From an uncultured Acidobacteriaceae bacterium (GTDB taxonomy: Bacteria > Acidobacteriota > Terriglobia > Terriglobales > Acidobacteriaceae), in contig CAWDTG010000006.1 of NCBI GenBank assembly GCA_963805245.1, positions 560,799 to 624,798 on the forward strand: 64,000 nucleotides of DNA, read 5' to 3'. The notes beneath the pieces are model-generated. The model was not told where the DNA came from, ran no database searches, and worked only from the letters and a program-made list of their open reading frames with translations. Shown here one piece after another: positions 20,104-55,943 of the stretch (the stretch's first letter is position 1; the number at the start of each line of letters is the position of its first letter). The position numbers and the translations under genes are program-made.

Positions 20104-20389
20104 AGGCTTGGGTAAAGCTGGCTTTTAGAGCATGTGTGACAACTTGGTCTGAGTTGGCGGAATGGGACGATTGCGCAAAGTCCAGCCCCAAAATGGGGCG
20201 GAAGAGCTTAGCCCAGCGCTTCAGCGCTGGGTACAGTGGGAAATGAGGCCGAGTCCCCTCAGGGACGGCAGAACAGCAATTCCCTCGACTCGGACTGAAG
20301 TCGTTGCTCGGGATGGCAGACGTTTGATAGTTTCCCACCCTTTCGCAAAAGCGGCGAAAGGATGGGGTACCCGAGAGTTCTTTGCAACA

Positions 20390-20445
20390 ATAGGGGTCCT
20401 TCGACTCCGCCGCGCAAAAGAGGCGCGCCTCCGCTCAGGATGACA
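20390..20445. repeat. family-A 56-bp repeat copy
   Basis: ataggggtccttcgactc-N-gctcaggatgaca with a central GC-rich hairpin. Same 56-bp length as the 22016-22071 and 47867-47922 copies. Confidence 0.8.
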
Positions 20446-20496
20446 AGCGAGGGGAATCGACGTGAGGGAAGGATCGGAACGCTAGGTATTGGGTTT

Positions 20497-20559
20497 GCTA
20501 ATTGCTAAAGGCTAATTGCTAAAGGCTAATTGCTAAAAGCTAATTGCTAAAGGCTAAGT
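20497..20559. repeat. heptanucleotide-periodic tract (GCTAAnn x9) upstream of nuoJ
   Basis: gctaatt gctaaag alternating for nine in-phase units. Ends 6 nt before the nuoJ ATG. Confidence 0.9.
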
Positions 20560-21586: not shown

Positions 21587-22177
21587 AGGAGCGGTTGTCA
21601 GTGACCAGTGGCCAGTTATCAGTTTCGACTAGACGGCGTGTCCACGATGTGTCTTTTGCGATTTAGTTTGGCCGATGCGCCATGAACTGTTCTTTGGAAT
21701 GTTTGCGCGACAGTGATCCAAGGGCCGCGAAACAAGTTGGAAGAGACGAACTGGTAGTGCGGCGCTTAGCGCCGCGTCGACGGTTCCAGGTAGATCGGGC
21801 TTTTAGCCCGGAAGGTAAACGCGGCATGAATGCCGCGGTTGTGACGATCTTTGCACTGACGATGATGCAGTCCCGCGGAGCGGGACGGGAAAGCTTAGCC
21901 CAGCGCGTGCCGGGGTCCCCAAGCCGCGCCGCCTTTGCGTGGATTGGGGTGGTTGAGCGCTGGGTAGGGAGGGAAGAACCTGAGTCCCGTAAGGACGGCA
22001 GAGTTTTTCGTGATTATAGGGGTCCTTCGACTCTGGCGCGCAAAGACGGCGCGCCTGCGCTCAGGATGACAGGCTTCATCTTCTGGAGAAGAGCGAAGGG
22101 CGAAAAGCGAATTGCGATTTCATTTATGGCTGACAGCTGATAGCTGACAGCTTGCTAGTTGCTAACGGCTAATTGCT
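21587..22177. repeat. nuoK-nuoL spacer made of stacked repeat modules
   Basis: Heptad tract 21597-21624, small hairpins at 21740-21840, family E at about 21895-21970, gtccc..ggacggcag hairpin at about 21983-22002, family A at 22016-22071 and heptad tract 22129-22177 abutting the nuoL ATG. Confidence 0.8.
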
Positions 22178-24307: not shown

Positions 24308-24495
24308 GGCCCACCCTGTCGCCAAAAGAGGGCGACAAGGATGGGGCACCCGCGCGAGTCGGGTCCCTCGGGGACGGCAGAAAAGCAGGTCCCTCGACTC
24401 GGACTGAAGTCCTCGCTCGGGATGACAAATTTACTTGTGGAACAGAAGTTTGAGCTGACGGCTAAAAGCTAACAGCTAAGGGCTAAGAGCCAAAA
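24308..24495. repeat. nuoL-nuoM spacer made of stacked repeat modules
   Basis: cccaccctgtcgcc..ggcgacaaggatgggg hairpin (24310-24354, related to 20334-20375), gtccctcggggacggcag hairpin, a family-A variant ending cgggatgaca, and heptad tract 24454-24495 (six GCTAAnn-type units) in exact register with the nuoM ATG. Confidence 0.8.
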
Positions 24496-26427
24496 ATGTA
24501 CAACCATATTCTTTCAATCATCTTATTTACGCCGCTGGTGGGCGCAATTCTCCTGATGCTAGTGCCCAAGGAGAACAAGGACGCCATCCGCTGGATTGGC
24601 AACATTTTCGGCATGCTGGGATTTGCAGTCTCAGTACCACTGATCCCGTGGTTCTGGGCGTTGAAGGACCGCTCTGGCTTCCAATTCGTCGAGGGCGCAC
24701 CCAACAACTGGATACCCTCCATCGGCGCCGGCTATGTGATCGGCATCGACGGCATCTCGTTCCTGCTGATCATGCTGACGACGCTGCTCGGGGCCATCTC
24801 GATCCTCTCGTCGTGGAACGCCATCCAGGAGCGGGTCAAGGAATACTACGTTTGGTTCCTGGTATTGCAGACGGGCATGCTTGGCGTCTTCATGGCCAAC
24901 GACATGTTCCTGTTCTTTGTCTTCTGGGAAGCCATGCTGGTGCCAATGTACCTGCTGATCGGCATCTGGGGCGGCCCGCGCAAGCTGTACGCGGCCATCA
25001 AGTTTTTCCTGTACACCTTGTTTGGCTCCGTGCTGATGCTGCTCGGTATCCTGTTCCTGTACTTCCATCACCACACCCTGACCGGCGTTTATACCTTCTA
25101 CCTGCCTGATCTTTATGCGACAGCGCCGAAGATTGGCGGGCACGCGGCCATCTGGTTGTTCTTCGCCTTCTTCGTCGGCTTCGCGATCAAGGTGCCGATG
25201 TTCCCCTTCCACACCTGGCTGCCGGACGCCCATGTGGAAGCGCCAACTGCCGGCTCCGTCATCCTGGCGGGCGTCCTGCTGAAGATGGGAACGTACGGCC
25301 TGATCCGCTTCTCGCTGCCGTTCTTCCCGGCGGTGGCGATGACGCCGTGGGTGCGCCAGTTCGTCATCGTGCTTTCGCTGATCGCCATCATCTACGGCGC
25401 GCTTGTCTCGCTGATGCAGAAAGACATGAAGAAGCTGGTAGCGTACTCGTCGGTCAGCCACCTTGGCTTCTGCACGCTCGGCATTTTTGCTCTAAGCCCG
25501 CTGGGACTCAGCGGCTCGGTTTTGCAACAGATCAACCACGGCATCTCCACCGGCGCACTGTTCTTGATTGTCGGCATTCTGTATGAACGCCGGCACACCC
25601 GCGAGATCGCGGAATATGGAGGCATCTCCAGCGTGATGCCGGTTTACGCCACCATTACGTTGATCATGTTCATGTCTTCGATGGGGTTGCCGCTGCTCAA
25701 CGGGTTCGTCGGCGAGTTCACCATTCTGCAAGGCACCTTCATGGAGAACAAGGTGTGGGCCGTCTGGGCAGTGCCGGGAGTAATTCTGGCCGCGGCATAT
25801 TTGCTCTGGCTGTACCAGCGCGTCTTCTTCGGCTCGGTGCACAATCCTAAGAACGAGAAGCTGATGGATCTTTCGGGAAGGGAACTGGCTACATTTATTC
25901 CGCTGGTGCTGGTCGCTTTCTGGATTGGCCTGTATCCCAAGCCGTTCTTCCAAATTCTTTCCACCCCGGTCAACAATCTGGTCGCAACCGTGCGCCCCGA
26001 TTATCCAGGACTGACCAAACCGGTGGTTGCCGATCAGCCGGTGACGAATCCGAATCCCGACGCGGCTACTCCGCTGCCCGAAGCGCCGAAAGCGCCGGCA
26101 AAGCAGACATCTCCGGCAAGCAGCTCGCCAACACAAACGGGCGTGACGAAAGCGCGGTCCCCGGTTCCGGTAGAGCGGCGCCCTTCGACAAGCTCAGGGC
26201 AGGCCTTTGGCGCAGCGTCAAGTGCGACTCGGGTAGAGCAAGCCTTCAGGCCTGCGTCAGGCGCAACTCAGGTAGGGCAGGCCTTTAGCGCCGCGTCAAG
26301 TGCGACTCAAGTAGAGCAGGCCTTTAGGCCTGCGTCCGGCGTATGTATTTCAAAACACAGCCGGGCTTCGAGCCCGCCGGCATCAGTCAACACGGCGAGC
26401 GCCAACGTATCGGCGCTCGGCAAGTGA
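24496..26427 (+). CDS. nuoM: NADH-quinone oxidoreductase subunit M with ~120-aa repeat-derived C-terminal tail
   Basis: Antiporter-like core (FFVFWEAMLVPMYLLIG, KVPMFPFHTWLPDAHVEAPTAGSVILAG). The ORF reads through a 39-bp tandem array before stopping 10 nt upstream of nuoN. Confidence 0.95.
   Translation: MYNHILSIILFTPLVGAILLMLVPKENKDAIRWIGNIFGMLGFAVSVPLIPWFWALKDRSGFQFVEGAPNNWIPSIGAGYVIGIDGISFLLIMLTTLLGAISILSSWNAIQERVKEYYVWFLVLQTGMLGVFMANDMFLFFVFWEAMLVPMYLLIGIWGGPRKLYAAIKFFLYTLFGSVLMLLGILFLYFHHHTLTGVYTFYLPDLYATAPKIGGHAAIWLFFAFFVGFAIKVPMFPFHTWLPDAHVEAPTAGSVILAGVLLKMGTYGLIRFSLPFFPAVAMTPWVRQFVIVLSLIAIIYGALVSLMQKDMKKLVAYSSVSHLGFCTLGIFALSPLGLSGSVLQQINHGISTGALFLIVGILYERRHTREIAEYGGISSVMPVYATITLIMFMSSMGLPLLNGFVGEFTILQGTFMENKVWAVWAVPGVILAAAYLLWLYQRVFFGSVHNPKNEKLMDLSGRELATFIPLVLVAFWIGLYPKPFFQILSTPVNNLVATVRPDYPGLTKPVVADQPVTNPNPDAATPLPEAPKAPAKQTSPASSSPTQTGVTKARSPVPVERRPSTSSGQAFGAASSATRVEQAFRPASGATQVGQAFSAASSATQVEQAFRPASGVCISKHSRASSPPASVNTASANVSALGK
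26186..26335 (+). repeat. 3.8 tandem units of a 39-bp hairpin-containing repeat inside the nuoM 3-prime end
   Basis: Units at 26219-26257, 26258-26296 and 26297-26335, plus a partial unit at 26186-26218. Each contains a gcaggcctttaggcctgc-type hairpin. Related to the arms at 30716-30743 and 30822-30848. Confidence 0.85.
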
Positions 26428-28751: not shown

Positions 28752-28920
28752 CTGGTTTTGCAGTGGGTTTTGACGTCTTCTCCCACGCAAATTTAGATTA
28801 TTCGCACACTCTCATACGCTAAGGCCAACGCTAGCTGTTCCTACCAACTCCGTTCGGCGGTACTAGCTTTACGCTCTCCTCTTCTGTTACCTTCTCTGCA
28901 CCTTGCTGAAGAAAGGGCAG

Positions 28921-30158
28921 ATGGGAGAACTCACAAGCAGCGCCCCACAGGCCAACTCCGATCGCTGGCACGCTATGGGCGCGGGCTTTCTTGGATGGAC
29001 CCTCGACGCCTTTGATTTCTTCGTCGTCATATTTCTGTTCGACACTCTGGCCGCGCATTTCCACGTCCCCAAACGCGACATCGTTCTCAGCGTAACCGCG
29101 ACGCTGGCCATGCGTCCGGTGGGCGCGCTCATCTTCGGCATGATGGCGGATCGCTACGGCCGGCGGCGTCCGCTGATGGTCAACGTATTGTTTTGTTCTT
29201 TTCGACCATTGAGTTGCTTTGCGGCTTCGCGCCCAACTTCACCGTTTTCTTCATTCTGCGAATGCTGTTCGGCATCGGCATGGGCGGCGAGTGGGGCGTG
29301 GGTGCATCGCTGGCCATGGAACACGCTCCCGTGCGCTGGCGCGGCGTGCTGTCGGGAATTTTGCAGAGCGGATACGTCTTCGGCTACTTTCTGGCGGCAT
29401 TTGCCGCGCGTCTGGTGCTGCCCAACTGGGGATGGCGCGCCATGTTCTGGGTAGGCGGCATCCCGGCGCTGTTGGCGCTCTACATTCGCACCAAGGTCCC
29501 GGAGTCAGAGGCCTGGAAGGTACATCGCGTGACGCGCACCATCGACGGCCCACGCATCGCATGGCAGCATAAACGACTGTCGCTCTACCTGGTCGTGCTG
29601 ATGTTCCTCATGAACTGCCTCTCGCACGGGACGCAAGACCTTTATCCCGATTTCCTGAAGCACGGGCACGGCATTGCGCAGAACACCGTCGCCTACGTCA
29701 CCATGTTCTATAACGTCGGCGCGGTCACAGGCGCAGTCATCTTCGGCCTGCTTTCGGAGCGGCTCGGGCGCCGCTACAGCATGCTGGCGGCACTGGCGGT
29801 TTCGCTGGCTATCATACCGGCGTGGGCCTTCGGCAGCACGCTTACGATTCTCGCGCTAGGCGCATTCGTGATGCAGATGGGAGTGCAGGGCGCGTGGGGC
29901 ATCATTCCTGTGCACCTCAACGAGCTGTCGCCTCCGGCGGTGCGCGGGCTTTTGCCCGGATTTACCTACCAGATTGGGATTCTGTTTGCCGCGTCGACGC
30001 CGACGGTCGAGTTCGCGTTACGCGACCACCTTGGCTATGCGTGGGCGCTGACGTCGTTTGAACTGGTGGTAATCGCCGTGCTTGCCGTGTGGTTGTTCTT
30101 CGGCGAGGAGAAGCATGGGAGGAGCTTCTTACACGAAGAGGAACAGGTTGCGGCGTAG
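28921..30158 (+). pseudogene. MFS transporter (NanT/YjhB-like), frame break near 29190
   Basis: The N-terminal part (GFLGWTLDAFDFFVV...MADRYGRRRPLMVNVL) and the C-terminal ORF 29193-30158 (FFSTIELLCGFAPNF...) are contiguous in homologous order but in different frames. The break lies in ttgttttgttctttt. Confidence 0.8.
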
Positions 30159-38432: not shown

Positions 38433-38500
38433 GTAGCAAGCAGCAATTCGCAACCAGCAATTAGCAATTGTCTCAGCAATTAGCCTTTGGTTCTTAGCAA
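38433..38500. repeat. heptad-periodic tract (TTAGCAA/CAGCAAT type) upstream of the M24 peptidase start
   Basis: AGCA recurs at 38435, 38442, 38456, 38463, then 38475, 38482 and 38496, giving a 7-nt period with one phase slip. Confidence 0.7.
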
Positions 38501-39669: not shown

Positions 39670-39744
39670 TTGGCATTTGGCAGTTAGCGTTGATTACGAA
39701 CGTTGTTATTTTGCGAAACTCTCCAGAATCTGAAGATCGGAAAT

Positions 39745-39786
39745 GCTAATTGCTAATTGCTAATTGCTAATTGCTAATTGCTAAAC
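39745..39786. repeat. heptanucleotide tandem repeat (GCTAATT x5 plus GCTAAAC) overlapping the dnaJ stop codon
   Basis: Six in-phase units. The dnaJ TAG stop (complement of 39781-39783) lies in the last unit. Confidence 0.9.
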
Positions 39787-42673: not shown

Positions 42674-44603
42674 TTATTTCTTCTCGTCCACGTCCACGTA
42701 CTCGGCGTCGATCACGCCTTCGTCTTTCTTCTTCTGCTCGCCGCCCGCGGTCTGACCATCTCCACCTGGAGCGGGTCCACCCGGCGGAGGCGTTTGCGCC
42801 GAAGTTGCTTTGTACATGGCTTCCGCCAGCTTGTGCGAAGCCGAAGTCAGGTTCTCGCGGGCTTTGTTCATCGCAGCCGCGTCGGTGCCCTCAAGCGCCT
42901 TCTTGGCATCCGCCAGCGCGTTCTCGACGTCGGCGCGCTCCTGCCCGGAGATCTTGTCTCCGTGCTCGCGCAGCATCTTCTCGATGCTGTACACCATGCC
43001 GTCGAGCTGGTTGCGGGCTTCCACTTCCTCGCGTTTGGTCTTGTCTTCGGCGGCGTGGGCATCGGCGTCCTTCGCCATGCGCTCGACCTCTTCCTTGCTT
43101 AGACCCGAAGACGACGTAATCGTTATCTTCTGGTCCTTACCGGTCGCCATGTCTTTCGCGTTGACGTTCAGAATGCCGTTGGCGTCGATGTCGAACGTCA
43201 CCTCGATCTGCGGCACGCCACGCGGAGCCGGAGGCAGTCCGGTTAGGTGGAACTTGCCCAGAGTGCGGTTGTCGCGCGCCATCGGACGTTCGCCTTGCAT
43301 CACGTGCACCTCAACCGACGTCTGGTTGTCGGCGGCGGTCGAGAACATCTCCGTTTTCTTGGTCGGAATGGTGGTGTTGCGCGGAATCATCTGCGTTGCC
43401 ACGCCGCCCATGGTTTCGATCGAGAGCGTCAGCGGAGTCACGTCGAGCAACAGCAGGTCTTTCACCTCGCCGCCGAGCACGCCACCTTGGATGGCCGCTC
43501 CGATCAGCCACCACCTCATCAGGGTTCACGCCCTTGTGCGGCTCCTTGCCAAAAAGCTCCTTCACCAGCTGCTGAATGCGCGGCATGCGCGTCTGTCCAC
43601 CGACCAGCACCACTTCGTTGATCTTGTCAGGAGTAACGCCGGCATCTTTCATCGCCTGCCTACACGGCCCGATGGAGCGATCGATGATGTCCTTCACCAT
43701 CTCTTCCAGCTTGGAGCGAGTCAGCTTCTTGACCAGGTGTTTGGGACCGCTCGCATCCGCCGTGATAAACGGCAGATTGATTTCGGTCTCCATGGTGGTC
43801 GAAAGTTCGATCTTGGCGCGCTCGGCCGCGTCGCGCAGACGTTGCAGCGCCATTTCGTTGCCCTTGTCGCGAAGGTTGAGGCCTTCGTCCTTCTTGAACT
43901 CGTCAATCAACCAGTCGACAATGCGCTGGTCGATGTTGTCGCCACCCAGGTGCGTGTCGCCATTGGTGGACTTCACTTCGATGACGCCTTCGCCGACTTC
44001 CAGAATCGAAATGTCGAAGGTGCCGCCGCCGAAGTCATACACCGCGATGGTTTCGTCCTTCTTCTTGTCGAGTCCGTAGGCCAGTGCAGCCGCCGTGGGC
44101 TCGTTGATGATGCGCTTAACGTCAAGACCGGCAATCTTGCCCGCGTCTTTGGTCGCTTGCCGCTGCGCGTCATTGAAGTACGCCGGAACCGTAATCACGG
44201 CGTCCGTCACAGTCTGTCCAAGGTAGTCCTCGGCAGACTTCTTCAGCTTCTGCAGAATCATGGCCGAGATCTGCGGCGGGGTATATTCCTTCCCCTGCGC
44301 GACGATGGCCACGTGATCGCCCGACTGCACGACCTTGTAAGGCACCATCTTCATTTCTTCATTGACTTCGTCGAAACGACGGCCCATGAAGCGCTTGATG
44401 GAGTAAATGGTGTTTTCTGGATTGGTGATGGCCTGGCGCTTTGCGACTTGGCCGACCAAGCGCTCGCCGTTCTTGGTGAATCCCACGACGGATGGCGTGG
44501 TCCGCCCGCCTTCTTCGTTTGGGATGACCTTGGGCTCGCCGCCTTCCATAACCGCGACCACGGAGTTCGTGGTACCCAAGTCAATTCCGATAATCTTTCC
44601 CAT
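42674..44603 (-). pseudogene. dnaK: molecular chaperone DnaK, reading frame broken by one extra base near 43505
   Basis: N-terminal ORF ([13 protein letters not shown]...NPDEVVA) and C-terminal ORF ([25 protein letters not shown]...). Deleting the top-strand C at 43505 gives the continuous sequence [13 protein letters not shown]. The second ATG (44603) is properly spaced from the aggagg RBS. Confidence 0.9.
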
Positions 44604-44717: not shown

Positions 44718-44845
44718 GTTTAGATGTAACAGATGCCAGCCTCGTTGCAGGGAATTTCTGGAACACGGGAGACCTCCCCATGGTTTTCCCGTTAGTATGA
44801 ATGCTTCTAGGGATACGAATGCCTGTAAGTCTCGGGAGCGGCGCA

Positions 44846-46180
44846 ATGGCGACGCAATCGGTGGAAACGAGCTGTTGCATCGTCGGTGGCGGACCCGCTG
44901 GAGTGATGCTCGGCTATCTCTTGGCCCGCGGCGGCGTGCCGGTTACGGTACTGGAGAAGCACAAGGATTTCTTTCGCGACTTCCGCGGCGACACCGTGCA
45001 TCCTTCCACGCTTGAGGTGATTTACGAGCTCGGTCTGCTAGAAGAATTCCTGAAGGTGCCGCATCAGAGGTTGACCTCGGTCGGTGGCGTCTTGGGCGAC
45101 TTTGCCTTTCAGGCGGCCAGCTTTCGGTGCGTGCCCACGCATTGCAAATTTGTGGCGCTGATGCCGCAATGGGATTTTCTCAACTTTCTTTCCAGCAAGG
45201 CGCAGGAATTTCCGATCTTCACTCTCAGGATGGAGCATGAGGCGGTTGACCTGATTGACGATAGCGGCCAGGTTAGCGGAGTGCGAGCGAACACGCCGAA
45301 TGGAACGGCGGAGATTCGGGCCGACTTGGTAGTCGGGTGCGATGGGCGGCATTCGACGATCCGCCATGCCGCAGCTCTGGAGGTGATCGAGTCAGGCGTT
45401 CCCATCGACGTGCTCTGGTTCCGCATTGGCCGCACTGCGGACGACCCCGAACAGCTCTTTGGAAACATCAACTACGGCAAGGCCCTGGTTCTAATTCCCC
45501 GGGGTGATTATTTCCAGGCCGGTCTTATCATCCCAAAGGGCTGTTTCGCAGATACACAGCGTCGAGGGCTGGACGAATTTCAGGCCGACATCGCCCAGAT
45601 TGCCCCATATCTCGCTGACCGGGTTACGGAATTGAAAGACTGGGACCAGATCAAGTTGCTAACCGTACAGATCAACCGTCTGCGGAAGTGGTATCGGCCT
45701 GGATTGTTATGCATTGGAGACGCCGCCCACGCTATGTCGCCAGCGGGAGGTGTCGGCATCAACCTCGCGATCCAGGACGCGGTTGCCGCCGCGAATCTCT
45801 TAACGCACGCACTACTAGAAAGGCGAGTCACCGAAGGCGTGCTGGCGGGCGTCCAATGCCGGCGGGAGTTTCCCACCCGTGCGACCCAATTCTTGCAGGT
45901 GCAGGCCCATAAGCTATTCGCGCGAATATTCCAGAATCCCGGTCCGGCGAAGGCACCATGGCAACTGAAGGTCGCCGTGAACATTCCCGGAGTGCATGAC
46001 CTGCTCGGACGGGTCGTAGGAAATGGGTTCCGTCCCGAGCACGTTGCTGGGGCGCGAACTCGGCCGGCAGATAGCGGGGAAAGCTTGAAGAAATTAGCGG
46101 TCGGAATCGGTCTTGCCGCGGCCGGCGCCGTGCTCGCGTTTCGCATGTTCAGAAGCAGGAAACGGGTGGTTTGGGCTTGA
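44846..46180 (+). CDS. FAD-dependent monooxygenase/oxidoreductase
   Basis: ORF from 44801 with an ATG at 44846 after gggag. Dinucleotide-binding motif CCIVGGGPAGVMLG, the later motif GDAAHAMSPAGGVGINLAIQDA, and a C-terminal hydrophobic anchor. Confidence 0.8.
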   Translation: MATQSVETSCCIVGGGPAGVMLGYLLARGGVPVTVLEKHKDFFRDFRGDTVHPSTLEVIYELGLLEEFLKVPHQRLTSVGGVLGDFAFQAASFRCVPTHCKFVALMPQWDFLNFLSSKAQEFPIFTLRMEHEAVDLIDDSGQVSGVRANTPNGTAEIRADLVVGCDGRHSTIRHAAALEVIESGVPIDVLWFRIGRTADDPEQLFGNINYGKALVLIPRGDYFQAGLIIPKGCFADTQRRGLDEFQADIAQIAPYLADRVTELKDWDQIKLLTVQINRLRKWYRPGLLCIGDAAHAMSPAGGVGINLAIQDAVAAANLLTHALLERRVTEGVLAGVQCRREFPTRATQFLQVQAHKLFARIFQNPGPAKAPWQLKVAVNIPGVHDLLGRVVGNGFRPEHVAGARTRPADSGESLKKLAVGIGLAAAGAVLAFRMFRSRKRVVWA

Positions 46181-46235
46181 CGCCGCGCGAGCGGAGGAAA
46201 CAGCCTTTGGGAAGACTGCGCAGGGAGCTTACGCT

Positions 46236-47039
46236 TTGACAACCATCCGATTACTTGGAATTCAGCTCTGTTACAACGACGGCGATCTCCTCGAAGACTC
46301 TCTGCGCTATCTGCTCGATCAAGGCCATCACGTAATTGTGTGGGACCATGGGTCCACTGACGAAACACCGGAAATTATCCACCGCTATCGAAGGGAATTG
46401 CTTGAAAGCCGCCACATTCCCAGAGAGTTCGATTTCTACGAACTGTACGCAGCCATGTCGAGGCACCTTCTCGAAAACCTCGTGCCGATCTACGAGTGGA
46501 TTTCCTGGCCAGATCAGGACGAATTCCTGGAGGGGCCATCTCGTTCAAAGCCGTACCGGGAATGCATCGAGGAGGTGCATGCGTCGCAGTATAGCTGGAT
46601 ACAATTCAATAACTTTAATTATTGGTTGACCAGCGCCGACGATCCGAGGATCCAGTCTCCGCCGTTGAGAATCCGGCATTACTCTCTCTTTCCAGATTGT
46701 TCTCCGAGAATTCGTTCGTGGCGCGCCTCCGCGACCAACATCCGGGTCTTCAATCACAATCCACCGCTGGGGAATCCGTGGCCTGCTCGATTCAACCTGC
46801 GTCATTACCCCATACGATCACCAGAGCAAATGCTGAATCGCGTCCTGCGGGATCGTGCGGGCTTGCGCCGCGGCGGCAGCAATTATCATTACGACAACAT
46901 GAAGCTGAACATGAATCGACTGGAAATCGCCCCTGAGCAACTTCATTACGACGATGGACGCTCGGAGTTAAATCCCGAACCGATTTTTAATTGGCGTTCC
47001 ATCTACGGATTCGGCGCGCCTGAGGAATCCGCCTCCTGA
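46236..47039 (+). CDS. glycosyltransferase-like protein (family uncertain)
   Basis: ORF 46113-47039, with a likely TTG start at 46236 after agggag. The N-terminus (IQLCYNDGDLLEDSLRYLLDQGHHVIVWDHGSTDETPEI) resembles GT2-type nucleotide-sugar binding domains. Confidence 0.45.
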   Translation: MTTIRLLGIQLCYNDGDLLEDSLRYLLDQGHHVIVWDHGSTDETPEIIHRYRRELLESRHIPREFDFYELYAAMSRHLLENLVPIYEWISWPDQDEFLEGPSRSKPYRECIEEVHASQYSWIQFNNFNYWLTSADDPRIQSPPLRIRHYSLFPDCSPRIRSWRASATNIRVFNHNPPLGNPWPARFNLRHYPIRSPEQMLNRVLRDRAGLRRGGSNYHYDNMKLNMNRLEIAPEQLHYDDGRSELNPEPIFNWRSIYGFGAPEESAS

Positions 47040-47054
47040 AGCCGATTAGATTAG

Positions 47055-48310
47055 TTACGTTTGGGAAAATGGCGCTACCTGTACCAGCTCCGTGGTGTGC
47101 TTCAGTTGCCCACAGGCGGCGTAGATGTCGCGGCCGCGGGGACGCCGAACGAACGCTGGTATTCCCGCACGGGTGAGGACGTTCTGGAATGCCAGCACGC
47201 GATCGTCGGACGGGGTGGAGAAGGGAATCTCTGCTCCCGAATTCAGCGCGATCAAGTTTACCTTCGCGCGCAGCCCGCGAATCAGGTCAACCATCTCGCG
47301 GGCATGCTGAACCCCATCGTTGACCCCGCCAAGCAGGACATACTCGAAGGTCAACCGCTCTCGATTGCGCAGAGGAAACTCGCGCAGCGCCGCCATTAGC
47401 TTCTCGATCGTCCACTTCTTAGTGATCGGCATGACTTGCGTGCGCAGCGGCTCGTTGGGAGCATTGAGTGACACTGCTAGCTTGGGGCGGACGGGCTCGG
47501 CTCCGAAATCGGCGATGCGCGGGACGATGCCCGATGTTGAAACCGTCATGCGCGACTCGGGAATGCCCACCGCTTCCACCAGCAGGCGCACAGCCTGCAT
47601 GAAGTTGTCGTAGTTAAGGAAAGGCTCGCCTTGTCCCATGAAGACAAGGTTGACGCGGTCGCGCTCCATCTCGACCTGCTGGTCGTTGAGCACGGCGAGA
47701 ATCTGTCCCACGATTTCTCCCGCGCTCAGGTTGCGCTTCAATCCCAGCAGCGCGGTCATGCAGAAGGCACACTCCACGGCGCAGCCCACCTGGCTGGAGA
47801 CGCAGATGGTGGCGCGCTGAAAGCGATCTCGGGAACGGGGAGGAGATGTGGAAAGTCCCGACTGCTATAGGGGTCCTTCGACTCGCCGACGCAACCTCGG
47901 CGTCGGCTCGCTCAGGATGACACTCTGAAATCTGGAGTTCTTGCAGCTCGGCATCTCCATCCTCCGATCCATCGCCGGCTTCTCCGCCATCGCCTTCCGG
48001 CATCCACACTGTTTCAACACTTTGGCCGTCGGAAAACGCCAGCAGGTAACGAACCGTCCCATCGATAGAAGCGAACTTCTTCTCGAGTTCGGGTAACCCA
48101 ATCGAGTAGCCCGAATCACTCAGCTGCTGCCGAAAGGCAAGGGCAGCATCGTGAACTGTTCCAAGAGCGACCACCTTTGCCGGTATAAACCGTCTAAAAG
48201 CTGGCGGGCGCGATAGGCGGGTTGACCTAAACCTTCAGCAATCTCCGTAAGTTGCTGAATCGTAAGGCCTAATAGTTCGGTATTTTGTTGGTTGCTCATG
48301 CATCCAATAT
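47055..48310 (-). pseudogene. rlmN: radical-SAM rRNA/tRNA adenine-C2 methyltransferase RlmN, interrupted by a 56-bp repeat insertion and a second frame break
   Basis: N-terminus MSNQQNTELLGLTIQQLTEIAEGLGQPAYRARQLLDGLY. Radical-SAM motif GCAVECAFCMT. Family-A repeat at 47867-47922 inside the coding sequence. Additional break at the G3 run 48141-48143. Confidence 0.85.
47867..47922. repeat. family-A 56-bp repeat inserted in rlmN, flanked by AG/AG
   Basis: Gene-sense tgtcatcctgagcg...gagtcgaaggacccctat. The element end creates an in-frame TAG in the downstream frame. Confidence 0.85.
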
Positions 48311-48515: not shown

Positions 48516-49794
48516 ATGGTTGAAGAAGTCCGCAATATAAAACGCGAGGTGTTGCCCAACGGGCTCACCATCCTGACCGAACACATGAACCACATCCGTT
48601 CGGTCTCGATGGGGATCTGGGTGAAGTCCGGCTCGCGTCACGAAGATCCCGCCGTGAATGGCATTTCGCATTTTGTCGAACACATGGTGTTCAAGGGGAC
48701 AACCAGCCGTACTGCCGAGGATATTGCCCGCCAGGTGGATTCCATCGGCGGCAACATGGACGCCTTCACCGGCAAAGAGACTATCTGCTTCAATATCAAA
48801 GTTCTGGACGAGCATCTGCCTCTGGCCGTCGATATCTTGAGCGACATGGTCCTGCATCCGGTCTTCGACGCCAACGAAATCACGCGCGAGCGTGGCGTCA
48901 TACTGGAAGAGATCAAGATGGATGAGGACAATCCCGACTACCTGGTGCATGAGATCTTCACCCAGAATTTCTTCAAGGACCACCCACTGGGCAAGCCGAT
49001 CCTGGGGACCAAGGAAACAGTGCGGCGCTTCGATCAGAGTGCCATTCAGGGTTTCTATCCCTCCAAGTTTGCTCCTGGCAATCTGATCATTTCGGCGGCA
49101 GGGAACGTGAACCACGAGGAGTTTGTCGAACTCCTGCGCCTGCGCTTCGGGCAGTTGCCGGCGGGATCCAACGGCTGGCACGACAGTCCGCCGAAAGTCC
49201 ATTCCCGCATCATCCTGCGCAACAAGAAATCCCTGGAGCAGGTACAGATTTGCGTGGGCGTTCCGTCGTACTGCATCAGCCACGAGCGGCGCTATGCGTC
49301 GTACATCCTGAACACGCTACTGGGCGGAGGGATGAGTTCGCGGCTCTTCCAAAACGTTCGTGAGAAACAGGGATTGGTGTATTCGATCTTCTCCGAACTG
49401 AATCCTTTCCGCGATGCGGGATTGCTGTCGGTGTATGCAGGTACCTCGCGGCAGTCTGCGCCCCATGGTGGTGCAATCCATCGTGAACGAGTTTCGCCAG
49501 TTGAAACTGGAGCCCATCTCGGAAGAGGAGCTGAAACGCGCCAAAGACCAGTTGAAGGGAAGCCTGATGCTGAGTCTGGAGTCGAGCACAGCGCGAATGT
49601 CCAACTTGGCGCGGCAGGAAATGTATTACGACCGCTTCTTCAGCATGGACGAAATTATTGAGCGCATCCAGGCGGTGACCAGAGAAGACTTGTTGCAATC
49701 CGCAAATGAACTATTCCAGCCGGAGCGAATCGCGGTAACCGTGTTGGGCAATCTCAACGGACTGAAGATCAGCCGCGATTCCCTGGTCTGCTGA
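48516..49794 (+). pseudogene. M16-family zinc peptidase (pitrilysin-like), frame break near 49450
   Basis: HxxEH motif (HFVEH) in the first ORF. The C-terminal domain continues in ORF 49414-49794 (SLRPMVVQSIVNEFRQLK...). The junction follows SVYAGTS. Confidence 0.85.
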
Positions 49795-51262: not shown

Positions 51263-51738
51263 ATGCGTAAACGTAACCGAGACCGGGGATTTACCCTGAT
51301 CGAACTGCTGATCGTCGTAACCATTATTCTGATCATCGCGGCATTCACCATACCCAAGCTTACGAAGTCGACTATTCCGGCACACGAGACTTCCGCCATC
51401 GCCAGCATCCGAGCGATCAATGAAGCGCAAATGATCTATGCCAGCAGTCATCCGGACGTGGGCTTCACGCCGGACTTGGCGATGCTGGGAGGTACGACTC
51501 AGACCGGCGGCGAGGGTACAATCGACAATACCTTGGCCAGCGGCCGCAAGAGCGGCTATACGCTTTACCTATACGCCCGGGGAGAAAGGTGAACGGCGCG
51601 ATCCGTTCGTACACGATCACTGCCGTACCCGACCAGGTTGGCACGACTGGACAGCGCCGGTTTTACTCGGACGAGGCAGGCGAGATCCATAACAATTCCT
51701 CCGGACCTGCGGATGCCAACAGCCCGGTGATTCAGTAA
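51263..51738 (+). pseudogene. type IV pilin (prepilin-type N-terminal cleavage/methylation domain), two frame breaks near 51570-51590
   Basis: MRKRNRDRGFTLIELLIVV N-terminus. The C-terminal part continues in other frames (FTYTPGEK, then VNGAIRSYTITAVPDQVGTTGQRRFYSDEAGEIH). Confidence 0.8.
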
Positions 51739-52691: not shown

Positions 52692-53902
52692 ATGGCCGAA
52701 TACCTGATCAAGATGGCCGACGAACGGGGTCATGTCCTCGAGCAGACTCGAGAACGGTGTCTCGGAGGTCGAGATCCGGGATCGCTTTGCCCAGCAGGGC
52801 TTTTTGGTCTATTCGGTCAAGGCCAAGGGGCTGTTTTCGACGGAAATGGGTTTCCCGCGCCGGCGCAAGATCAAACAGGACCAGTTTGTCATCTTCAACC
52901 AGCAGTTTGTGACGCTGATCCATGCCGGCCTGCCGATTATTCAGTCGCTGGAACTGTTGATCAAGCGGCAACGCAACCTCTTCTTTCGTCCGGTGCTGCA
53001 GAATGTGCGCGACCGGGTGCGCGGTGGCGAGTTGCTCTCCGAGGCGTTCGAGGCGCAGAAAGTTTTTCCGAAGGTTTACACCACCACCCTGCTGGCCGGT
53101 GAGAAGAGCGGCAATCTGGAAGAGGTGATGGGGCGCTACATCTCCTTCCAGCGCCTGGCGGTCAGTTTTCGCAAGAAGCTGACCGCTTCACTGGTCTATC
53201 CCGCGTTGCTGGTGGCCATGCTTATCGTGATGATGACGTTCCTCATCACCTTTGTCGTTCCGCAGTTCGCAAACCTGTATCAACAGCTAGGTGCTCAGTT
53301 GCCGACAATGACCTCCATCATGTTGTCCATCGGGGTCAACGCGAAGCACTATTTCTTGCCCTCGCTGGTAGTGCTGGGCGATCGCTGGTTTCTTCTTGTG
53401 GCGTTGGATGAAGAGCGACAGCGGCGCCACCAGGATGGACCGCTTCAAATTGAAGATCCCCATGCTGGGAGATGTCTGGTTGAAGTACCAGGTCGCGGTG
53501 TTTGCACGTATGCTGTCAACTCTGCTGTCGGGCGGACTGTCGCTGGTCCCCTCGCTGGAGACGGCGGGTGAGTCGATGCAGAGCCGCCTGATCGCGCGCG
53601 GCATCGAGACGGCGACCCGCGGCGTGCGCGAAGGCCAGGGGCTGGCGCACAGCCTGGAAGAGACCAAGGTCTTTCCGGAAATGTCGGTGGAGATGATTGA
53701 GGTCGGTGAATCGACGGGCGCGCTGCCGGCAATGCTGAACTCGGTGTCGGAGTTCTATGAGGAAGACGTGCAAAACGCACTGGCCACGGCCATGGCGTTG
53801 ATTGAGCCGGTTATCCTGATTGTGATGGGCGTGGTAGTGGCTTTTGTGTTGATTTCCCTGTACCTGCCGATCTTTAGTTTGGGTTCGGAGGGGCTGCATT
53901 AG
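52692..53902 (+). pseudogene. pilC: type IV pilus / T2SS inner-membrane platform protein PilC/GspF, two frame breaks (about 52745 and 53385)
   Basis: Three consecutive ORF pieces cover a complete GspF-type protein (two T2SSF repeats, ...AMALIEPVILIVMGVVVAFVLISLYLPIFSLG). Confidence 0.85.
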
Positions 53903-53907
53903 AAGGG

Positions 53908-53935
53908 GATAGTGGTTAGTGGATAGTGGATAGAA
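53908..53935. repeat. heptad-periodic tract (GATAGTG x4) after the pilC stop
   Basis: gatagtg gttagtg gatagtg gatagaa. Confidence 0.8.
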
Positions 53936-54015
53936 ACAGCGGGTCCTTCCGCTCGGTCGCCGTGGCGACCTCGGTCGGGATGACAGAATAAGTGGGGGTG
54001 GAGTACTTTGCTTTA

Positions 54016-54064
54016 GCTAGCTGCTAATTGCTAGTTGCTAATTGCTAATTGCTGATTGCTAGTA
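54016..54064. repeat. heptad-periodic tract (GCTAnTT x7) upstream of pilB
   Basis: gctagct gctaatt gctagtt gctaatt gctaatt gctgatt gctagta, all in phase. Confidence 0.9.
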
Positions 54065-55738: not shown

Positions 55739-55773
55739 AGCAATTAGCATTTAGCAATTGGCAGCTAGCAGAT
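55739..55773. repeat. heptad-periodic tract (AGCAnTT x5) after the pilB stop
   Basis: agcaatt agcattt agcaatt ggcagct agcagat. Confidence 0.8.
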
Positions 55774-55943
55774 TGTGATCTCGTATGCGTCTGTCATCTT
55801 GAACTTGGAGCGCGGCAGGAATAGTTTGCTTGTCATCCTGAGCGAGGAGCGCGGCGACGAAGGACCCGATACTGGCCGAACCGTTGGTTTCGTGAGGAAC
55901 TTGCCACGTTAGGGATCCTTGCTGCGCTCAGGATGACACGATT

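Follow-up and report, generated by a model that had tools for sequence, protein, structure and literature searches.

The rlmN locus and its reading frame

The 64,000-nucleotide stretch analyzed in this work (hereafter, the window), which belongs to contig CAWDTG010000006.1 of an uncultured Acidobacteriaceae bacterium (assembly GCA_963805245.1), carries on its minus strand the gene rlmN, coding for the 23S rRNA/tRNA m2A radical-SAM methyltransferase, and this gene embeds a palindromic sequence of 56 bp. It belongs, as one copy, to a high-copy repeat family of the Terriglobales (Acidobacteriota) that resembles REP (repetitive extragenic palindromic) elements and is referred to here as family A. 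The relevant features of the locus, as assembled, are the following:

47055-48299, minus strand: rlmN, split into three open reading frame (ORF) pieces
48138-48139, minus strand: frame break 1, one G missing (CCCTT-GCC in the window, CCCTTGGCC or an equivalent in seven orthologues)
47817-47997, minus strand: hypervariable interdomain linker, from ETVWMP to RATICVSSQ (181 nt in the window, 180 nt in the orthologues L001, L002, and L083)
47867-47922, minus strand: family-A REP-like palindromic element, exact match; the middle frame reads CHPERADAEVASASRRTPI(A)
47861, minus strand: frame break 2, one T too many in the window, given in gene sense (TAGCAGTCGGG in the window, TAGCGG-CAGG in the orthologues)
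47760-47783, minus strand: CX3CX2C radical-SAM cluster motif, translated as CAVECAFC, its columns invariant in an alignment of 48 orthologues

The identity of the product is indicated by the radical-SAM motif, the RlmN_N domain, and the similarity over the full length to characterised RlmN proteins: 120 RlmN homologues were retrieved at E <= 1e-202, with PF04055 and PF21016, and the RlmN structures 6fz6 and 3rfa of the PDB match the product at E 1e-66 to 1e-73. According to the ORFs and their translation, the N-terminal piece (48299-48120) spans 59 codons, the middle piece (48174-47614) lies in a different frame, and the C-terminal piece (47789-47055), harboring GCAVECAFCMT, returns to the frame of the first one; only the middle piece is shifted, and the N-terminal 54 codons share the C-terminal frame. 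The 56-mer TGTCATCC...CCCCTAT occurs exactly once, at 47867-47922, against zero occurrences expected by chance. The upstream frame passes through it (...ELQISE-CHPERADAEVASASRRTPIA-VGTFH...), and a TAG, that of CCTATAG, closes the frame containing RATICVSSQVGCAVECAFCMT on its upstream side. The local sequence around the element had been correctly described in a first-pass annotation, together with the fact that ...ELQISE continues in frame into QSGLSTSPP...RATICVSSQ once 58 bp are deleted.

From these observations the annotation had derived a model in which a recent transposition of the 56 bp, accompanied by a 2-bp duplication of AG, inactivated rlmN, so that the excision of 58 bp would return the ancestral gene. 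The joining of the two frames, the AG found on both flanks, and the matching dinucleotides flanking two further copies in the window speak in favor of this model, but the comparison with the orthologous genes makes it very improbable. The repaired RlmN protein, used as a query, returned proteins from metagenome-assembled genomes (MAGs) of Terriglobales and Korobacteraceae and from soil metagenomes, which are 74-94% identical to it and 380-471 aa long, their length varying wholly between ETVWMP and RATICVSSQ. Dozens of them have the sequence ...SCHPERADAAVASASRRTPIAAGSSTSRPYSRDRFQ-RATICVSSQ, in which the family-A element is translated in the frame of the middle piece. Through selected protein matches, DNA was obtained for seven rlmN genes that are intact, stem from independent assemblies, and share 84-90% nucleotide identity with the window: L001 (NCBI MAG GCA_044447455.1), L002 (ENA), and L083 and L163-L166 (JGI and other metagenomes). 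In all seven the element lies in frame at the identical site; it is found there, read as CHPERADA.VASASRRTPIA, in about 35 of 119 RlmN protein clusters, and a further rlmN, that of L058, carries it there in frame too. The element is thus not the cause of the frameshift, nor is its excision a repair, because the intact orthologues contain it in frame, the very observation that the annotation had named as contrary to its model; besides, 58 bp (56 + 2) is not a multiple of three and could not yield their in-frame state. Since relatives of this divergence share it, the rlmN copy is old rather than recent.

The differences in frame between the window and the seven intact orthologues amount to exactly two single-base events, both unique to the window and both outside the element. 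The insertion of a G at 48138/48139 brings back LPLAFRQQL. This first break, unrelated to the element, had been overlooked by the annotation, and the 58-bp deletion does not restore the gene, since the N-terminal 54 codons would still lie in a different frame. The extra T at 47861 lies 6 nt 3' of the element, in an alignment column of which the window is the sole occupant, and its removal gives ...RRTPIAAGLSTSPPRSRDRFQRATIC, matching RRTPVAAGSSTSRPYSRDRFQ of L001. The two edits together produce an rlmN ORF of 414 aa with no internal stops, whose linker reads ...RRTPIAAGLSTSPPRSRDRFQ against RRTPVAAGSSTSRPYSRDRFQ in L001. Hence, with the breaks outside the element and the element present in all seven closest orthologues, the picture is not that of a gene disrupted by a mobile element; it is two single-base indels, and not the element, that break the frame.

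A question concerns the nature of the two indels. The annotation had set aside a sequencing artefact; we consider an assembly error more likely, and the comparison of sequences suggests that the missing G and the extra T are most likely consensus errors of a long-read metagenome assembly. Indeed, other genes of the window bear similar marks: single-nucleotide insertions unique to the window occur in dnaK (at 43506, in comparison with 5 relatives), in the adjoining M16 peptidase gene (at 49460, 7 relatives), and in a pilin-like gene (at 51562 and 51585, 9 relatives), and both a major facilitator superfamily (MFS) transporter gene (28903-30158, split at about 29200-29450) and a PilC-type T2SSF gene (52732-53902, split at about 53400-53570) are divided into consecutive ORFs that match, one after the other, the portions of a single Pfam model or architecture. 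The MAGs L031 and L058 of the Microflora Danica project, which relied on Nanopore long reads (PMC12313526), are among the nearest genome representatives (80-90% identical to the window), and their rlmN genes are frameshifted too, within the linker, whereas the short-read assemblies examined are all in frame, which suggests that this region is prone to long-read consensus errors.

The same lesions might be read as real, with rlmN, dnaK, the M16 peptidase gene, and the pilin gene being very recent pseudogenes of a decaying genome and the element an old in-frame passenger. At least five or six conserved genes of the window are frameshifted, most of the indels do not fall in homopolymer runs, and read data would be needed to exclude such a decay. 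We nevertheless hold it quite unlikely, since it requires that dnaK and other core genes were lost simultaneously in a free-living soil acidobacterium, and since all the lesions are single-base indels unique to the window, the signature of consensus errors, in the absence of nonsense substitutions and larger deletions. In the corrected rlmN, which has no nonsense substitution, the ratio of nonsynonymous to synonymous substitution rates (dN/dS) of the radical-SAM part is 0.025-0.046, and its value of about 0.03 is identical to that of two intact orthologues compared with each other (0.030). A knockout of rlmN is accordingly doubtful, and, the window being indel-prone, any pseudogene call in it needs read support.

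It might also be supposed that programmed ribosomal frameshifting decodes the changes of frame, with the GC-rich hairpin of the element, which is stable (minimum free energy -22.5 kcal/mol) and adjoins frame break 2, as the stimulator. The chance of this is practically negligible: the hairpin lies upstream of the shift site and not downstream, no slippery heptamer was seen, no structure is found near break 1, the orthologues do not need recoding, and unrelated genes show like lesions.

Concerning the surroundings of the gene, dnaK and rlmN are separated by a segment of about 2.2 kb (44801-47039) with an FAD-dependent monooxygenase gene and a GT2-like gene. L001, L003, and L004 lack this segment, dnaK directly following rlmN in them, and it is a lineage-specific insertion or rearrangement.

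The family-A repeat

The consensus structure of family A was derived from 12 aligned copies and comprises 13 pairs. Its outer helix, UCCU/AGGA, covaries to UCCC/GGGA and is followed inward by tandem G-A loops, a GC that pairs with G(U)C, another G-A loop, and a GC-rich apical stem of 7-8 bp, whose sequence differs among the copies while the pairing is kept. In the alignment, 95% of the cells are paired, against 25-46% in slid controls, and two-sided changes affect 28 cells, against 9.3 in shuffles (0/500 shuffles reach 28), with compensatory changes at seven of the 13 pairs; the earlier remark that the copies combine conserved termini with a variable apical stem and compensating pairs is thereby substantiated. 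The rlmN copy matches the covariance model at 47864-47925 with 76.2 bits (E 5e-21). The tails of the copies read CCCCTAT(A/T)(A/G), CCTGC(T/A)GTT, or TCTGCGGT. Terminal inverted repeats of about 15-30 bp are not present, the pairing between head and tail being limited to the 4-bp UCCU/AGGA helix and GC/G(U)C, and the GTAG/CGTC end tag of REPs is lacking, GTAG occurring only in two copies of L001 via an A-to-G change.

No known RNA family corresponds to the element in the Rfam scans: at the gathering threshold the sole match in the whole window is Acido-Lenti-1 (20184-20231), family A remaining unmatched, and under permissive settings the segment 47780-48000 matched nothing but a long non-coding RNA, by chance (E 6.4). 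A reading of the CUGA...GAA core as a hammerhead or a k-turn, made by eye, was discarded, as it lacks a stem I, has the wrong spacing, and has no Rfam match. In a literature search for the head sequence of family A, the sole paper containing it was unrelated to the element.

As for the target site, the 2-bp duplication that had been put forward as the signature of insertion is not established. AG follows the CCCT[AG]T tail in 5 of 14 separate, unrelated copies, and this recurrence makes it probable that the dinucleotide is element sequence. The flanks of the rlmN copy vary among the orthologues: AGC/AGC in L001, L083, and L165, AGT/AGT in L002 and L166, and GAG/AG(C or A) in the window, L163, and L164; those of L058 do not match. 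The matching dinucleotides noted in the window do exist (AG, TG, and GG in three of the seven CCCTAT-tailed copies), but they are unconvincing as target duplications, and in about 15-28 copies a duplication is indistinguishable from element-internal sequence or chance. It is possible that a short duplication accompanied the original, ancient insertion into rlmN. We also observed that AGC stands on both flanks of the element in L001, L083, and L165, and AGT on both in L002 and L166 (aligned to 47862-47925).

The covariance model detected 11 copies at E < 1e-3 in the window and 32 further matches in related Terriglobia loci totalling 599 kb, some of these forming convergent pairs that resemble REPINs; the rlmN copies excepted, they lie outside long ORFs. 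The copies of the window other than that of rlmN, with their covariance-model scores where these were assigned, are listed below:

13192-14735, plus strand: copy split by an IS110-family element (head TGTCATCCTG at 13192-13201, rest AGCG...CCCTAT at 14700-14735)
14755-14841, minus strand: long-stem variant, intact; similar long variants in L005 and L015
20271-20321, minus strand: diverged copy, intergenic, 32.3 bits
20387-20448, minus strand: copy, intergenic, 78.4 bits
22013-22074, minus strand: copy, intergenic, 77.7 bits
24380-24430, minus strand: copy with short apical stem and CCTGCTTTTC tail, intergenic, 57 bits
38510-38571, plus strand: copy, intergenic, 67.2 bits
53934-53988, minus strand: copy, 38.2 bits, absent from L002
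55828-55874, plus strand, and 55906-55941, minus strand: convergent pair, REPIN-like, 31.3 and 20.7 bits
61697-61754, plus strand: copy, intergenic, 59.5 bits

Inverted pairs resembling that at 55828-55941 are also found in L001, L002, L005, L043, and L076. In L002 the orthologous spacer lacks the copy at 53934-53988, with boundaries blurred by flanking heptamer repeats, and family A is therefore polymorphic, by insertion or deletion, between relatives. The earlier claim that the element is mobile holds for a dispersed family that has moved over evolutionary time, and not for a recent movement into rlmN.

The earlier observation that another copy is itself the target of an IS110 element was also borne out. 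This insertion sequence (IS) occupies positions 13202-14699, with the ends tctataacgacgtcggc...gccgacgtcgttatgtaatca and a transposase gene on the minus strand (13570-14619; Transposase_20 and DEDD_Tnp_IS110 in Pfam), and its insertion point falls precisely at the junction of GTCATCCTG and AGCG, GG being present on both flanks. Such a precise position suggests a sequence-specific targeting of the conserved head of the repeat, and it fits the known role of REPs as IS targets (PMC3733652). A non-exhaustive scan of the ORFs identified IS110 as the only transposase of the window. The mobilisation of family A might be due, as a best guess, to a putative HUH transposase of the RAYT/TIRYT type; TIRYT genes have been reported in Koribacter and other Acidobacteria (PMC3733652).

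Two further observations concern the neighboring sequences. The Acido-Lenti-1 small RNA (Rfam RF01687, 47.6 bits, minus strand) is located in the spacer after a nuoI-like gene, adjoining the family-A copies at 20271-20321 and 20387-20448 and a core (20354-20371) of the GAPSFRP type described below. Moreover, a tandem repeat with a period of 39/78 (about 3.5 and 1.9 copies) and GCAGGCCTTTAGGCCTGC palindromes lies at 26196-26341, near the end of a nuoM-like ORF; it is of a type other than family A.

The interdomain linker of RlmN

The segment hosting the element in rlmN is extremely variable. Over 157 Terriglobia loci the linker measures 16-87 aa, with a mode of 25-26 aa, and in its modal form it is acidic and glycine-rich (EGDGGEAGDGSEAGDE...WD); the corresponding segment of the solved RlmN structures 6fz6 and 3rfa, from ETVxM to RxTxCVS, has about 3 residues. 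The AlphaFold2 model of the protein P0003 gives a pLDDT of 32-49 over residues 104-158, across the insert, and the dN/dS of the linker is 0.5-1.1. In comparison with the short-linker forms of RlmN, such as the 383-aa proteins without the element (e.g., P0051), the element represents an insertion; the element-free linkers are too diverged to define an empty-site junction.

Family A is found in the linker of about 45 of the 119 close RlmN clusters, in all three forward frames (CHPER..SRRTPI, VIPS..VEGSAV, and LSSRA..VEGPA) and in the reverse orientation (LDSARDD, FAQD). It is not the only repeat embedded there: the GAPSFRP..AKGW palindrome occurs in about 29 of these clusters, and peptides encoded by heptamer arrays in about 31 (LETRNLKLET) and about 33 (QHSALS), the linkers free of all these repeat types belonging to 37; tandem and partial copies are also present, e.g., in P0018, P0047, and P0087. 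The scattering of the linker types over a neighbor-joining tree of the conserved core indicates a rapid turnover.

The modules follow one another in the order heptamer array, family A, and GAPSFRP-type element, which is identical to that of the intergenic spacers of the window, where heptamer arrays (3-8 units of the TTGCTAA/TTAGCAA type) accompany six family-A copies, at a distance of 23-55 nt on their head side. This shared order implies that the linker behaves like a translated intergenic spacer. The heptamer tandem arrays of the window, most of which terminate shortly upstream of the start codon that follows, are located at:

20495-20557
22129-22152
24453-24495
38434-38467
39744-39784
54016-54063
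55739-55775

These data can be accommodated by a simple scheme. In it, the rlmN copy is an insertion of old date, inherited vertically and placed between RlmN_N, the N-terminal domain, and the strand leading into the CX3CX2C loop; it is translated in frame and supplies about 19 residues to a linker that is disordered, acidic, and neutrally evolving at the protein level. If the linker acts as a disordered tether between the two domains, stop-free inserts whose length is a multiple of three would be nearly neutral and hence accumulate, through tolerance and survivorship, so that the linker would have collected repeats of intergenic type, i.e., family A in its three forward frames and in reverse, the GAPSFRP..AKGW palindrome, and the heptamer arrays. 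We infer that the tolerance of the linker explains the accumulation of repeats in it, in agreement with the way in which Rickettsia palindromic elements (RPEs) and intragenic REPs are understood, that is, as tolerated in-frame insertions (PMC10969869, PMC3733652).

A different idea is that the linker is an insertion hotspot, in which composite modules are repeatedly targeted, perhaps by homing to resident copies as IS110 did at 13202, exchanged between lineages, and kept translated, while the hairpin may have a role at the RNA level, e.g., in an interdomain pause. The use of all three frames and both orientations, the intergenic-like order of the modules, the lower synonymous substitution rate (dS) of the linker, and one compensatory pair changed in the hairpin of L058 are in line with it. 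The stem, on the other hand, is decaying through plain mismatches in L163 and L164, and the wobble changes (including G-U changes in L002, L165, and L166) show no strand bias, so that there is no clear evidence of selection on the hairpin within rlmN. We regard the hotspot idea as rather unlikely and prefer the tolerance of the linker.

On balance, an old in-frame repeat in the rlmN linker, combined with two probable error indels, is the likely explanation of the locus. Some points weigh against it. Most indels fall outside long homopolymers, the classic Nanopore error context; that at 47861 lies at a distance of just 6 nt from the element, so that the two may be connected; and comparison of sequences alone does not prove that they are errors. 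The co-varying AGY flanks may go back to an ancient duplication of 3 bp with later parallel changes, to conversion, or to chance. Finally, no transposase able to move family A was identified in the ORFs of the window, which were scanned non-exhaustively and without a search for RAYT/TIRYT genes. What stands of the first-pass annotation are its local sequence facts, the presence of a formerly mobile repeat in rlmN, and the role of the family as an IS110 target, while its recent and disrupting insertion is refuted; the case calls for caution, in that what looks like the knockout of a housekeeping gene by a mobile element is instead a translated passenger of long standing, accompanied by two probable assembly indels.

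Comparison with known repeat systems

The closest parallel is offered by the RPEs (Ogata et al. 2000, as reported in PMC10969869 and PMC3733652). Like them, family A is a short palindrome that lies in frame within a housekeeping gene and is translated, at a position compatible with the protein fold, and in both systems only stop-free, in-frame copies survive; indeed, the element is in frame and stop-free in the seven intact orthologues and in the approximately 45 clusters mentioned above, and its site is a linker. The likeness concerns behavior and not a sequence family: RPEs are about 100-150 bp long and belong to an obligate intracellular alphaproteobacterium, whereas family A measures about 50-60 bp and is found in free-living soil Acidobacteriota; given these differences of phylum and size, homology is not to be expected. 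Moreover, unlike in the RPEs, several unrelated repeat families share one linker of one gene, where they use each of the three frames and either orientation and turn over rapidly among close relatives.

Family A also shares several features with the REP/REPIN sequences (Di Nocera et al. 2013, PMC3733652): both are short, GC-rich, imperfect palindromes forming a stem-loop, present in high copy number (11 copies of family A in 64 kb), mostly intergenic, often arranged as inverted pairs, and occasionally located inside ORFs, and family A, too, is targeted by an IS (IS110). It differs from REPs in lacking a conserved GTAG or CGTC tag, in exceeding the classic length of 20-40 bp, and in the unusual combination of conserved purine-rich internal loops with a freely covarying apical stem; furthermore, no RAYT/TIRYT gene is linked to it here, where none was searched for. 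Miniature inverted-repeat transposable elements such as Correia/NEMIS, ERIC, and Nezha are similarly small, non-coding, dispersed, polymorphic between relatives, and able to fuse in frame, but they have what family A is without, that is, terminal inverted repeats of 15-30 bp and a related autonomous IS; nor is a target-site duplication demonstrated for family A.

What is new, then, is an RPE/REP-like in-frame palindromic insertion in the Acidobacteriota, together with a single linker that collects several repeat families. The phenomenon of selfish palindromes inside proteins, known from the RPEs, would thus extend to abundant, free-living soil Acidobacteriota, and the RlmN linker, which with its 16-87 residues records the insertions of several repeat families among close relatives, might serve as a natural test bed for timing the activity of repeats, for seeking their targeting rules, and for gauging the tolerance of random peptides beside a cluster-binding loop.

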